Under the pieces are notes generated by a model. That model worked only from the letters and a program-made list of their open reading frames with translations, was not told where the DNA came from and did no database searches. A DNA stretch of 64,000 bases. Origin: Eledone cirrhosa. Lineage: Eukaryota. The DNA lies in NCBI GenBank assembly GCA_964016885.1, contig OZ024740.1, positions 29,512,001-29,576,000 on the forward strand, read 5' to 3'. Shown piece after piece: positions 40,321 to 55,177 of this stretch (within the stretch, counting starts at the first letter, position 1; every line of letters starts with the position of its first letter). Made by a program: the position numbers and the translations under genes.

Positions 40321-41919
40321 ATTGGGGGGTTTTGTGGTGTCTCTTTTTTTGTTTTTAGATTTCCGAGGCTCTCCTTCTTCACATAAAGAAGGAGAAGCAG
40401 CCTCATCTGTCGGTAAATAATCATCGTCAGAGGTGTGGGGTAGGGGTATGTTGTGTGGTTGTGGTGTTTCGGTGTGTGTGTTTGTGGTAGTGTTTGATAG
40501 AGTGGGATGGGGTGGGGCTGTGTTCTTCAGGGGTGTTGTCCGTGTTTTTTCTGTTGTTGTTGGTTGAGTGGCTGTTTGTTTTGGTGTGTTTGCTCGTTTC
40601 GTCTGTTGCTCTACTTCTGGTGGTGGTTGTTTAGGTGTTGGTGTTGATAATAGTGTTTTTTTAATGATGTTGTTGCGGTGTGTTTGTGAAGGACAGGAGG
40701 CCTTTAGGTGTGCTGTGCTACCACAGCGAAATCAATGAAGTTTACGACTCTCCACCGAAATGTTTATTTTGTTGTTGTCGTCGATGACGACTTTTTCGGG
40801 TATTTTGGAGATTCTCTCCGGCCTCATTTGAATCAGAATCTCCAAATCAGTACCCGCCCACCTTTGTCTAATAGACTTTCGTATCGAAAGAATCATATCA
40901 TTTTCTGGCTCTTCGAAGCCAGCCAACATCCACCAGATGTTAATGTTTGGTGGTATGTTTTTTTATTTTTATTTGTTGTCCTTTTTCCCATGTACGTAGG
41001 GAAAAAGGTGAATGCTTTTGACACCATTGGTGTCACAGAATGTTTTTGGGCGACTGCCTCGCTTTTAAACAGTACGGAAACACTTCCGTACTGTTTTCCT
41101 CGTTGGAGAAAGTCAATATTTGCTAGAGTCTCCTTGAAGGTGGCTTCTATATCTCCTTGACTTACAAATATTGGCTTTCTCGTTGTGTTGGAGATAGTCC
41201 TAAAGCTCACTGTCCTTCGAACTGTCTCTTCTTTTATTTCGAGGGGTGAGTTAATTCTAAACCCACCCTTGTCTTTGAAAGTTACAAATTTTCTCCCTTG
41301 CTGGAGCATATCTCTTGCATTGGAGATGTCAAGATTTATAAAATCTTGTTTTTTGTTCACTGTTTCAGCGAAAGACTTTTTTGTGTGCTGTTGCTGTTGT
41401 TGTTATCGTTGTTAGCCTCAGTGTTGGAAATCTGAATTTCTTGAAGAGATGAAACTTTATGTGGAGATGTATCTATGGAGTTGTTGATGTTGTCTTTTTC
41501 ATGTGTATGTATGTTAATAGGTTTAATTCCTGTGTTTTCCTGTGTGTTATTGTTATTTTTCTCCGTTTCGACGGTAGAAATTTTAAAATCTACAAGGGGT
41601 AATATATTTTCTCTTTGTTGACAGTCGTATCAATGGCGACGTCCATAGTAGCAGAAGCAGATATAACGTTAATATCTGCCTCTCTACCTCTCTTCTCTCT
41701 GTCGACGTTCTCTAGCGTTCTTTCCGAACTATTCATGTTTTATAGTTGTCAAAATTTGATATTTTAAAACAATTTTTTAATTAAATTTTCGCCCCAGAAG
41801 GGGCGAAAATTCAGCTTGGGAGTTAATATACAAAATGATATGTTTTTTCAAACAATTAGTTCGGGGTTTTGCATAGAAATTAACAAAAAAGCTTACCGAC
41901 AATGTTCCACGCGTCAGGC
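40321..41919 (-). mobile_element. Tx1/L1-like copy E7: 5' UTR and disrupted ORF1 only
   Basis: SFAETV, FRTISNTTRKP, FFPTYMGKR, ISVE...FRCGSTAHLKASCP. Confidence 0.85.
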
Positions 41920-41946
41920 AGATAAAGAGATAGATAGATAGATAAG

Positions 41947-44900
41947 TTTCTATTTATTTGCCACGAGGGCACAAAAGAAGGGGACAAATACGAGGGGGGG
42001 GGGTTACATAAAGGAACGAGTAAAAAACAAATAACAGATATAAAATTAAAAATACAGTCCTCAATAGGGAGGAGGCGTTTTGGGGGTTACACACACCCCG
42101 AAAAAGTGTGCAACCCTTTTCCTTAGGAGCACAGAGAGGGGGTGCTCCTTTGAACTTTCACCTTTCCACCTACAGGCTGATAAAGAGAGAAGGCCCATTC
42201 ACACGGGCCATTCTCGCTACTTTCACCCACATTTCATAAAACTTGCTGGGGTAGAGAACCTCTCTCGCTATTCTGGTCCTTCTCTTAAAATGGTATTTAA
42301 AGAAAAGGACCAGTTGTTGGCCGGAGAGAAAGGTGTCCGACCTCAGCCCTTTCAAACGTGTCCACCATACCACCTCTTTAACCATGGCTATTACACAGAG
42401 GAAGACCGCCTCTCCTTCATTTTTGAAGGGGGGAGGCGGCTTGATCGTTACAATGGACTCGGTGGTCAACCGGATTGGTCCCATCCGTGACAGCAGTCGT
42501 TCGACATAGCCCCACAGATCGGCAACGCCCGAGCAGTGTACCAGTGCGTGCGCAACGGTTTCCTCGTCGCGCACGCATCTGGGACAGATCTTTTTCGAGG
42601 ACTCCCTACCCGGGCACCCGTGTCTGTAGAGCTTTTCTCGAACGAGCAGTGCCCCTCGGTACCACTGCCAGGCGAGGGACCTCTGGAAGTTGTCCATAGG
42701 TCCCGGGCCAAATGTCCTCCCGAATAGGCTGGCCAGTTCGTCTTCTTCCATGCCTAGGGCTTCTCCGAGGGCGCCGTCGCACCTACTAACCACAAGCCCT
42801 CTATAGAATGACGAGGTGGAGTCTCCACCGATAGCCGGGTTCGCCTGCCAGAGAGCCGTGAGCGCCTGGGCACACTCGGTGTACCGTCTGTGTAGCGAGA
42901 CCCAGATGTTTTTGCAGCAGAACAACCCCACCGCACGCTGCTGATCCGGGCCTCGCAAATAACCATCACATTTATACATCGTGACCTGAGGTCATTTAGA
43001 AGCATTGCTTGCTTCCAAGGTGAGCCCAGGCCACGCGCATTTAGACAACCTACTCTCAACACAGCCATGTTGGTGGTAAATAGAAAAGGCACCTACCTCT
43101 CTGCGTCCCGGGGACCAGGCCGCACAATTTTCATGGGGTGGGGGTGGGGTTTTGTGGTGGGGGTGGGGTTTTGTGGAAGTGTAGGGGAATCAGTGTGTGG
43201 TGGGGTTGGGGTGTTTGGAGTCGTGTGGGTGTCTGGGAGGGGGACATTTTTTAGGAGGACACGGTTAATGGGTCTGACGCAGGGGGGCCCCACGTTCTCT
43301 TTAAAAGTGTCTTTTATCGTTTTGTAAATGTCCATTGGGGCTTTTATCATTTTTAGATGGGGAAGCCCCGTTGCTTGTGCGAAATTCGAACCTTCGGTTT
43401 TTATTAAGTTGTTATTATAAATAACATTTAACAGTTTTTTGTTTATTGCGTTTATGTAAGTGTATGCATATTTGATGTTTTTTGTTTGCTGCTGTTGTGT
43501 ATGTTTTTTGTGTTGATATCTGTGTTATGTATTGGGGAGGGGTTGTTTGTATTTGTGTTCCTGTGGTGTGTTTTCTTTTTTTTCATTTAACTTTATGAAA
43601 GTGTCGCCCCCCCCCCCCTCGTCTGACGACGAAAGAGGGTCGTCTTCCGTATTCGAGGGGAGGGGTACATTTTCGGCTCGTGTTTGTGGTGTGGGTGTTA
43701 TTGTATTTGTTTTCTGTGTGTGTGGGGGGGGGGGGATTGGTGGGATCGTTTTCAGTTGTGGTGGTAATTTTTTTTTGTGGTGATGGTGGTGGTGGAGGTC
43801 GTGTTGGTAGTGTTGTAATTGTTGGTGTGGGCTAAATCGGTGTTTTTTTTGTTTGCTTGAGAACATGCAGCCCTCAGGTGACCTTTGCCACCACAGAGGT
43901 AACAAGCGGGTCGTCTACCCTCTACTGTGATATGTAAGTAGGCAAGCCCATCCAGCAATATGCGGTCGGGGATCCTAGCAATTCGTTCTGGCTGCATTTT
44001 CACCAGAACTTGCAGGCTAGTTCCACCGAACACGTTGCTGGAAGACTTACCTACCGAAATTACTGCATCCTCTTTCAAGTCCAAGAGGCCACACAGTACC
44101 GCCCAGAAATCAATATCTGGATCGATACTGTGTATGGTCAATCTTTGCGTTCTTCTTCCCAAATAAATGGGGAAGAAGGTAAATAAGGGGGATACAATTG
44201 GGGCCAGGGAATGTTTTTCGGCCGTCAATTTATCTTTCATTCGGATGGATAGACTACCGTAGAGTCTATCCTTCCGAATGAATACAATGTTTTTCAGATG
44301 ATCTTTTAAAGCCAGTTCAATCTATGTCTGTGTGAGTTATACTGGCTTACGGGTTTTGTTGGATATTGTCCTATAAATAATAGTTTTTAAGCTATTTTCC
44401 TTTTTTAGCTCTGGGGGAGAATTTAAAGAAAATAGACCATTCTCCTCCAAAGTTATATACTTCCGTGCATTTTCCATTTGCTGGGCCATGTTCGAAATGT
44501 CAATCGGTTCATACACAATGTTTTTTTTTTGGTAGTTTGAGCGTACGTCATTTTGTTCGCCCCCTCTTTGTTTACATTTGTCGAAATGTGGTTGTTTTCT
44601 TGTTTTTTTGTTGTTACAATTTTCATTTTTTGTTGTGTTTGTGTTATTTATGTTGGTGTATGCGTTCACATTTTTTTCACCGTTGGGGTTAGACTCCATT
44701 TTTTCAAAATGTCCACTTATATTTTCAGTATCCGAGAGACTTGTAGTCACAGCTACTACTTCTCTTTCACCTTTGCTGGTGGGCGTGGCACCGAGAAAAC
44801 GAGAAAAGTCGAAACGTCATCCATTAATGTTGGCAATTTCTCCGAGTCAATTTTTTTCATTAGGGTTAGGCTCCATTTTTTTAAATGTTTCTAATAATCA

Positions 44901-45204
44901 TTATTCTTTCAGTAGAGAGGCTTGTTGCCTCAGCTACCCACTCTCCTTCAGTTTGTTTAGTGGGCGTGTCATCGTTACCTGTGGTAATGGCTTCCATTAC
45001 CACTAGCGTAGAGACAATTACAAGATTTTTAGGATGAAAAATTTCACCCCAAAAGGGGTGAAATAAATTAACCCTATTGTCTGAAGACCCAGGAAAGGGG
45101 GTTAATTAACACAATAACGCAAGAATATAGACAAACACTTACTGCTAACACGTAATATCTCCAATCCTCGAGGAGCCGATGTGAAGAACGTCTATACCAT
45201 CCGG
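41947..45204 (-). mobile_element. Tx1/L1-like copy E6: 5' UTR, ORF1, ORF2 start, large internal deletion, 3' end
   Basis: CYLCGGKGHLRAAC; MAVLRVGCLNAR; deletion near 42880 at acac microhomology; CPRCVRDEETVAH; (CTAT)n tail 41920-41946. Confidence 0.9.
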
Positions 45205-45223
45205 AGATAGATAGATAGATAGA

Positions 45224-54633: not shown

Positions 54634-54635
54634 AT

Positions 54636-54673
<38 letters not shown>

Positions 54674-54675
54674 TA

Positions 54676-55177
54676 TTTCTTTATTTGCCACAGGGGCGTA
54701 CAAAAATGGGACATTACAAGACGTGACGGCGGGGGTTTTACATAAAAATCATATAACTTTAACATTAATAAATAACAATAAACTATATATAATAAAATAA
54801 CAATTGAAATCCCCAAAAGGGGGAAGCGTTACTGCAGGGTTGTTTTACACCCCGTGGATAGAACAACCCTCAACACCAGGAACACGTTTTGTAGGTGTTC
54901 CCGTCTTCCCTCTGTTTATCTTCCTCAACCTACAGGTTTATATACAGAGAACGCCCATTCACCCAGGCCATTTTCGCTACATTCACTCACCTTTCAGCGA
55001 ATTTACTGGGGTGTAGCACCTCTCTCTCCAATCTCACCTTCCTTCTGAAGTGGTACTTAAAGAAGGGGATAAGTTGTTGTCCGGAGAGGAAGGTTTCTGT
55101 CCGCAGTCCTTTTAACCTCGTCCACCATATTACCTCTTTCGCCATAGCAACCAGACAGAGGAAAACCGCCTCTTTAG
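54676..55177 (-). mobile_element. Tx1/L1-like copy E1, 3' fragment
   Basis: KEVIWWTRLKGLRTETFLSGQQL...; 3' end gtggcaaataaagaaa followed by tatat(ctat)n. Confidence 0.9.

Follow-up and report, generated by a model that had tools for sequence, protein, structure and literature searches.

Seven oriented LINE copies joined by (TATC)n in Eledone cirrhosa: probable stacked insertions of an L1-group family found in this microsatellite genome-wide

The stretch analysed here, referred to as the window, comprises 64,000 nucleotides of Eledone cirrhosa (assembly GCA_964016885.1, contig OZ024740.1, positions 29,512,001 to 29,576,000 of the forward strand; positions below are counted from its first letter). 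From 40321 to about 55209, it contains seven pieces of long interspersed nuclear elements (LINEs), all on the minus strand and numbered from E1 on the right to E7 on the left (Table 1). As a first-pass annotation of this stretch had described, they are arranged head-to-tail through (CTAT)n, given here as (TATC)n or, on the forward strand, GATA; the six joining tracts start at 41929, 45206, 46131, 47974, 53817 and 54638. Each of the six surviving 3' ends in the array reads AATAAA(TA)GAAA followed by two bases and (TATC)n, poly(A) is present at none of them, and the next copy begins directly after the tract. Only eight tracts of at least two GATA units are found in the 64 kb, and six of these are in the array; the other two have two units each. 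The array very probably consists of independent insertions by a large LINE family of the L1/Tx1 group that sits in (TATC)n/(GATA)n genome-wide, and which likely stacks because each insertion leaves a usable target on both sides.

The seven pieces are 69-93% alike in pairwise comparisons, represent at least five subfamilies and differ in their 5' truncation points, whereas their nearest fetched relatives elsewhere are 89.9-99.1% alike (searches were made for the pieces other than E1 and E5). The possibility that the array copies are segmental duplicates of one another, which the first-pass annotation had itself raised, or that they arose by unequal crossing-over between TATC tracts, is refuted for this array by that diversity and by the closer similarity of each copy to dispersed copies, and has virtually no chance of being correct here, although near-identical copies in some arrays elsewhere (including six copies of a subfamily termed S, at 99-100%) are what such a process would leave. 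An alignment reading indicates that E1 seems to extend about 30 bp beyond 55177, where it adjoins another repeated sequence.

Table 1. Features of the LINE array, with positions in the window. UTR stands for untranslated region, ORF for open reading frame, APE for apurinic/apyrimidinic-type endonuclease and RT for reverse transcriptase.
Feature	Position	Strand	Description
E7	40321..41928	-	5' UTR and most of ORF1; 3' part lost at an unrelated repeat; 91-92% to full-length relatives
(GATA)4 target tract	41929..41944	+	Between E6 3' end and E7 head
E6	41945..45205	-	Both ends present; ~2.5 kb internal ORF2 deletion; terminus AATAAATAGAAA-CT
(GATA)4 target tract	45206..45221	+	
E5	45222..46130	-	5'-truncated; E7 subfamily; ~90% to E7-family full-length copies
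(GATA)5 target tract	46131..46150	+	
E4	46151..47973	-	5'-truncated; ~72-bp internal deletion; TT terminus typical of E4 subfamily
GATA tract with one variant unit	47974..47997	+	Between E3 3' end and E4 5' end
E3	47998..53813	-	Full-length, 5.8 kb, young subfamily; ORF1 and ORF2 frameshifts; 98-99% to dispersed copies
E3 ORF1 main piece	52023..53456	-	C-x2-C-x4-H-x4-C knuckle in translation; no Pfam match for the piece
E3 ORF2 N-terminal piece	50111..51682	-	APE endonuclease, open frame; PF03372, E 2e-08
E3 ORF2 RT piece	48627..50318	-	YADD motif; PF00078, E 2e-26
E2 target-site duplication, 3' copy, 14 bp	53811..53824	+	Overlaps E3's first three bases
E2	53825..54631	-	5'-truncated; ~105-bp 3' UTR deletion; 98-99% to dispersed copies
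(GATA)9 tract region	54632..54673	+	Contains 5' copy of E2 duplication, 54632-54645
E1	54674..55209 (5' end approximate)	-	5'-truncated; without TATC at 5' junction

Pfam searches of the array identified APE, RT and zf-RVT pieces (PF03372, PF00078 and PF13966), and a CCHC knuckle (PF00098) was detected below the Pfam cut-off in the E6 ORF1. An ORF2 with an N-terminal APE domain, an RT domain and a C-terminal zinc-binding motif is an arrangement expected of the L1 group, and the family also exhibits the fixed 3' end, variable 5' truncation and target-site duplication that are hallmarks of target-primed reverse transcription (TPRT). For the intact ORF2 of one relative, L107, the best solved match is human L1 ORF2p (E 2e-51, residues 7-854), with far weaker matches to R2 (E 1e-15 to 4e-19) in a comparison where only clades with solved structures could appear. 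The E3 APE piece, aligned to human L1 ORF2p via L107, lies in an open frame with catalytic motifs, and does not need the repair that the first-pass annotation had considered necessary. On these sequence features, the family is assigned to the L1 group (L1/Tx1) of APE-type retrotransposons lacking long terminal repeats. Its ORF1 is of the CCHC-knuckle type, a feature that is typical of the Tx1 clade without being exclusive to it; the portions of PMC5203782 covered here tie this type of ORF1 to Tx1 in non-mammalian animals.

In protein searches, a protein of Argonauta hians (62%) was the nearest named match, and no named Tx1L, Kibi, Koshi or Keno reference was present among the matches from these searches and from cluster look-ups. 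A quick RT tree pairs the octopod group with an unnamed sister group (support 100) and leaves deeper nodes open; the zebrafish protein BAC82613, which we take to be a Tx1 element, is not joined to the octopod group. In the parts of PMC4889948 covered, BAC82613 is cited without the element being named. The sister group (P0003-P0019) comprises ORF2 proteins of about 1,150 amino acids with 36-43% identity. The ESM Atlas returned nothing beyond generic APE and RT clusters, and of two metagenome scans for relatives, the first detected none and the second detected 33 loci, all distant.

Across the 3.0 Gb genome searched, the 3' end of the family is fixed as AATAAAGAAA plus two subfamily-typical bases. 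The 16-base 3'-end motif has 16,792 exact copies, of which 13,172 (78%) continue with NN-TATC, as compared with 7 and 0 matches for the corresponding reversed-pattern controls. The dinucleotide preceding the repeat is characteristic of the subfamily: after AAAGAAA, the E4 family continues with TTTA at 21 of 28 parsed ends (30 loci, E4 included), and the E2 family with CATA at 21 of 25 ends and TATA at 3.

On the 5' side, full-length copies were sampled as the best-scoring relatives of the E3, E6 and E7 heads (the best 29 of 1,195, 29 of 315 and 20 of 699 candidates, respectively), and an 8-mer of the repeat is found no more than 30 nt upstream in 28/29, 28/29 and 19/20 of them, or 75/78 overall (96%). 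The antisense repeat is upstream of none of the first 58 heads, from the E3 and E6 families. Among truncated copies (82 anchor 3' ends at 88 loci), the 8-mer is present at 29 of the 44 5' junctions in view. Background occurrence is 12/5,394 windows in 29 control loci (0.2%), and 3/2,782 within the window outside the array. The first-pass annotation had taken the repeat to be the insertion target, and had recognized that a general lack of (CTAT)n on the 5' flanks would instead point to a tail generated by the RT; the flanks of both full-length and truncated copies bear out the former. The parts of PMC4494074 covered here regard LINEs as microsatellite-specific when one repeat is shared by over 20% of their flanks, a level that is well exceeded by the 3' ends and the sampled full-length 5' ends of this family.

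Duplications of the target point in the same direction. When shared non-repeat bases were required, 13 of 112 copies with both ends passed the filter, and eight of these are clean (L100, L101, L109, L133, L139, L148, L158 and L295): all eight duplications are 13-21 bp in length and start at TATC directly after the two terminal bases. The other five (L015, L091, L129 and two in L285) were discounted as matches of repeat phase. In about eight cases, the terminal dinucleotide was compared by eye with the target bases upstream of the duplication, and no pattern emerged; contigs from four of six sequencing runs provided no usable empty-site joints, as multi-copy contigs swamp this stretch. Because duplications that include unique bases start at TATC, the tract is target rather than a tail made by the RT. 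Three of the clean sites (L133, L139 and L148) have a single TATC unit, and no units have been added at their 3' junctions; the RT therefore does not make the tail. An origin of (TATC)n as a tail produced by RT slippage or carried on the RNA, as in L2, CR1 and RTE elements, with insertion at random sites, would account for the repeat at every 3' end in the array, and the subfamily-typical dinucleotides indicate that RNA does template the bases adjoining the repeat. However, it is largely refuted by the repeat on the 5' flanks of full-length copies and by the single-unit targets, and we consider it hardly credible.

The copies have one orientation relative to the repeat, and their junction keeps to a single strand of it and to an exact base position. 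This bears on the possibility that insertion is only loosely directed to AT-rich DNA and that copies survive passively in microsatellite-rich regions of low recombination, as has reportedly been suggested for Waldo in Drosophila. The window is indeed very rich in simple repeats, and a few copies of the family are located in (TA)n or (TCTG)n, but the fixed junction speaks against this possibility, as does an unrelated abundant repeat that lacks a TATC tract at its matched stretch in 29 of 29 loci. Passive accumulation is accordingly extremely unlikely.

Several observations nevertheless weigh against (TATC)n as the target of the whole family. The 22% of 3'-end motifs without NN-TATC amount to 3,620 copies, of which subfamily S explains only about 350. 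The 8-mer is missing from 15/44 truncated copies, of which some have short TATC duplications and others are suggestive of secondary breaks or wrongly called junctions; (TA)n surrounds L091, and TATC is lacking 5' of E1. Sampling of the 5' ends took top-scoring matches and was not random, and because E6 and E7 heads start with TATC-like bases, the counts for these two families are slightly too high. No diagnostic duplication was obtained from 99 of the 112 both-ended copies.

Stacking is common in the family, and the E1-E7 array is an ordinary, though long, example of it. A head lies directly behind another copy in 25/78 cases (7/29 in the E3 family, 12/29 in the E6 family and 6/20 in the E7 family). 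Among the first 100 motif matches on contig 1, there are 28 adjacent pairs separated by no more than 7.5 kb, where 2.8 are expected; 27 of the 28 are on the same strand (22/23 without one block), as compared with 33/54 of pairs more than 50 kb apart. These oriented clusters hold different subfamilies, in line with the accumulation of divergent subfamilies in oriented arrays that was proposed on first inspection. The head of a further subfamily is found after TATC tracts at four loci (in the downstream flanks of L003, L006, L092 and L103), and L119 combines an E6-type head with an E3-like ORF2 and is possibly a recombinant.

The order of insertion can be partly read within the array. E2 is flanked by a duplication of 14 bp, three bases of which are E3's own first bases; the family sequence at E2's 5' break does not supply the ATAA of the duplication. 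Because the duplication includes the first bases of E3, E2 was inserted after E3 and in front of its head. The first-pass annotation was right to treat this duplication as diagnostic, but the last two bases that it counted are the terminus of E2, and no later expansion is needed. Its second example does not hold: the variant base said to mark a duplication around E4 is not diagnostic, because the AA at 46151-46152 is the terminus of the E4 subfamily itself, also seen in 20/27 other copies. The similarity of E3 to its relatives (98.8%) exceeds that of E4 to its own (93-98%), and on this sequence comparison E3 likely arrived after E4.

The insertion of newcomers into the tail of a neighbour, as originally envisaged, is consequently only part of the picture. 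Newcomers are found behind tails, but E2 was inserted before a head, and L295 likewise duplicated the first bases of a downstream E7-family head. It is the tract that is targeted, rather than the tail of a neighbour, and arrays therefore also grow at the heads of neighbours. It could be argued that the element recognizes its own 3' end and that the microsatellite is incidental, given the frequency of heads behind other copies and a clustering ten-fold above chance. Since 53 of 78 heads are located in TATC but lack a scored family end upstream, and two duplications include a neighbour's head, self-targeting of this type is very unlikely, although sites next to earlier copies may be mildly favoured in addition.

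LINEs with an APE domain integrate by endonuclease nicking and TPRT. From this chemistry, the APE endonuclease would be expected to nick the GATA strand, where the RT would prime, and a second nick 13-21 bp downstream would duplicate the target. The RNA likely continues into the flanking repeat for a few bases and would pair with the nicked strand, replacing pairing between poly(A) and T; the inherited terminal dinucleotides, the uniform TATC-like E6 and E7 heads, the lack of poly(A) and the precedent of R1Bm and SART1 all suggest such pairing. Any tract between copies would then serve as a target, and newcomers could land behind tails as well as before heads.

Specificity for (CTAT/GATA)n, as first proposed for the family, applies to most copies but not to subfamily S. 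TATC is absent from 12 of the first 30 motif loci, and the common alternative flank belongs to this subfamily, a 5.6 kb element that is 78% identical to E3 over ORF2 and is inserted in a 72-bp tandem unit. S has 325-353 copies, and 87 of the first 88 share one 3' junction. In 20/20 dispersed loci, this lies at the start of the 72-bp unit. The 5' junction comes after unit position 65 in 18 full-length copies, as well as in one of the two that are truncated, which fits a 7-bp target truncation. A 65-bp duplication was considered and rejected, as 1-16 bases distinguish the 5' unit from the 3' unit in 11/11 copies. The host of S is a short element with TTAA-CCC inverted ends, found on the left in 13/20 loci, on the right in 11/20 and on both sides in 7/20, as compared with 7/812 control windows. 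TTAA flanks and inverted ends starting with CCC are the defining feature of non-autonomous piggyBac elements, and by its sequence the host is classed as a piggyBac-type short element. The six near-identical S copies are found in one array (L254-L264 and L305-L318 in G000, e.g. C1:4.22-4.26 Mb), and the listed S matches seem to be clustered towards contig ends.

A full-ORF2 tree of 16 rows places S among the TATC targeters; its sister there is E3 plus E6 (97/98), and the E7 family is basal. A constraint that keeps the TATC subfamilies in one group is rejected (p-AU 0.019, for a group named after the quick tree was seen). S, a sister subfamily, has likely switched to a different target. The identity of its ORF2 domains to those of the microsatellite targeters is 74-87%. 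S and the TATC-targeting E4 family have an identical betaB6-betaB5 loop, placed by alignment to human L1 ORF2p, and the loops of E3 and E6, which also target TATC, are different; in the sections of PMC1950540 covered, this loop is described as shaping nicking preference. A doubtful, if conceivable, explanation is that target choice is partly held in the RNA ends and inherited: copies would carry a few bases of the founder's target at both termini, and a founder in the 72-bp repeat would have re-aimed the S lineage with its specificity loop unchanged. Against this, other APE positions do differ in S (74-78% identity), the site of S locally resembles TATC, and, with so large a proportion of its copies being full-length, S may have spread by conversion within the satellite. 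If true, the explanation would mean that an APE LINE has recently and naturally changed its target with the assistance of RNA.

The surroundings of the array are also rich in repeats. To its left, 40014-40320 is the 3' piece of an unrelated and very abundant repeat (5,427 candidates) with a (CTT)n end, which we take to be RTE-like and which adjoins the break in E7. To the right of E1, a repeated sequence at 55221-56600 contains a frame with weak resemblance to GDSL/SGNH esterases (55698-56054, below cut-off), together with a 119-amino-acid frame on the opposite strand, and is possibly ORF1 of another retroelement. An eighth copy of the family, in the opposite orientation (+ strand, about 25800-29710), has an internal deletion and is followed by degenerate (TCTG)n, with similar repeats also upstream. 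A GIY-YIG-like frame at the Pfam cut-off (38470-38820) is probably a fragment of a Penelope-like element. Simple-repeat arrays of great length, ACC-rich and (ACT)n/(ACC)n, occupy 17470-25131 (7.6 kb) and 58415-60636 (2.2 kb), and another short repeat, outside this LINE family, forms an inverted pair at 14447 and 30665, each member with an internal GATAGATA.

LINEs that target microsatellites and tandem stacking by sequential insertion are both already known. As described in the parts of PMC4494074 and PMC3812793 covered, Kibi is specific for (TC)n, Koshi for (TTC)n and crocodilian Tx1 families for (TTCC)n/(TTTC)n; by analogy, the present family appears to be another APE-type LINE inserting specifically into a microsatellite. 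It differs in its target, (TATC)n, which is listed in neither source as far as covered, and in having more than 16,000 copies with several subfamilies in mixed arrays, and it is likened to Kibi and Koshi by type of target and not by descent. No (GATA/TATC)n-specific LINE was found in the literature searched, although Repbase, Kojima and Fujiwara 2004 and the supplements of PMC4494074, which were outside the search, may list such a target. Both an octopus repeat annotation (PMC13282606) and PMC8967140 list L1-Tx1 families, the targets of which are not described in the parts covered. What is new is thus a target repeat not encountered in that literature and a very large family in a cephalopod genome, where GATA-type markers may often be LINE-flanked.

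The mechanism by which APE elements target microsatellites was described as not well understood in a 2013 review (PMC3812793, in the parts covered). R1Bm, SART1 and human L1 share the APE-RT ORF2 with the E1-E7 family, and in R1Bm and SART1 pairing of the RNA 3' end with the nicked target DNA helps priming (PMC7265360, in the parts covered). L1 and SART1 use poly(A), whereas the E1-E7 family leaves none at the junction and has an ORF1 with a CCHC knuckle. Sequential insertions of SINEU-3 and Tx1-Mar likewise result in tandem copies that sandwich a duplicated target, but there the target is a Mariner transposon and SINEU has poly(A) tails (PMC4494074, in the parts covered).

Of greater value is the finding that two close subfamilies differ in their strict targets. 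The insertion site of Xenopus Tx1 is said to lie in internal tandem repeats of its host, Tx1D. Like Xenopus Tx1 in Tx1D, a non-autonomous piggyBac element in the account of PMC4494074 as far as covered, S is found at a fixed site in a short TTAA-flanked, CCC-ended element; it differs from Xenopus Tx1 in being nested among microsatellite targeters.

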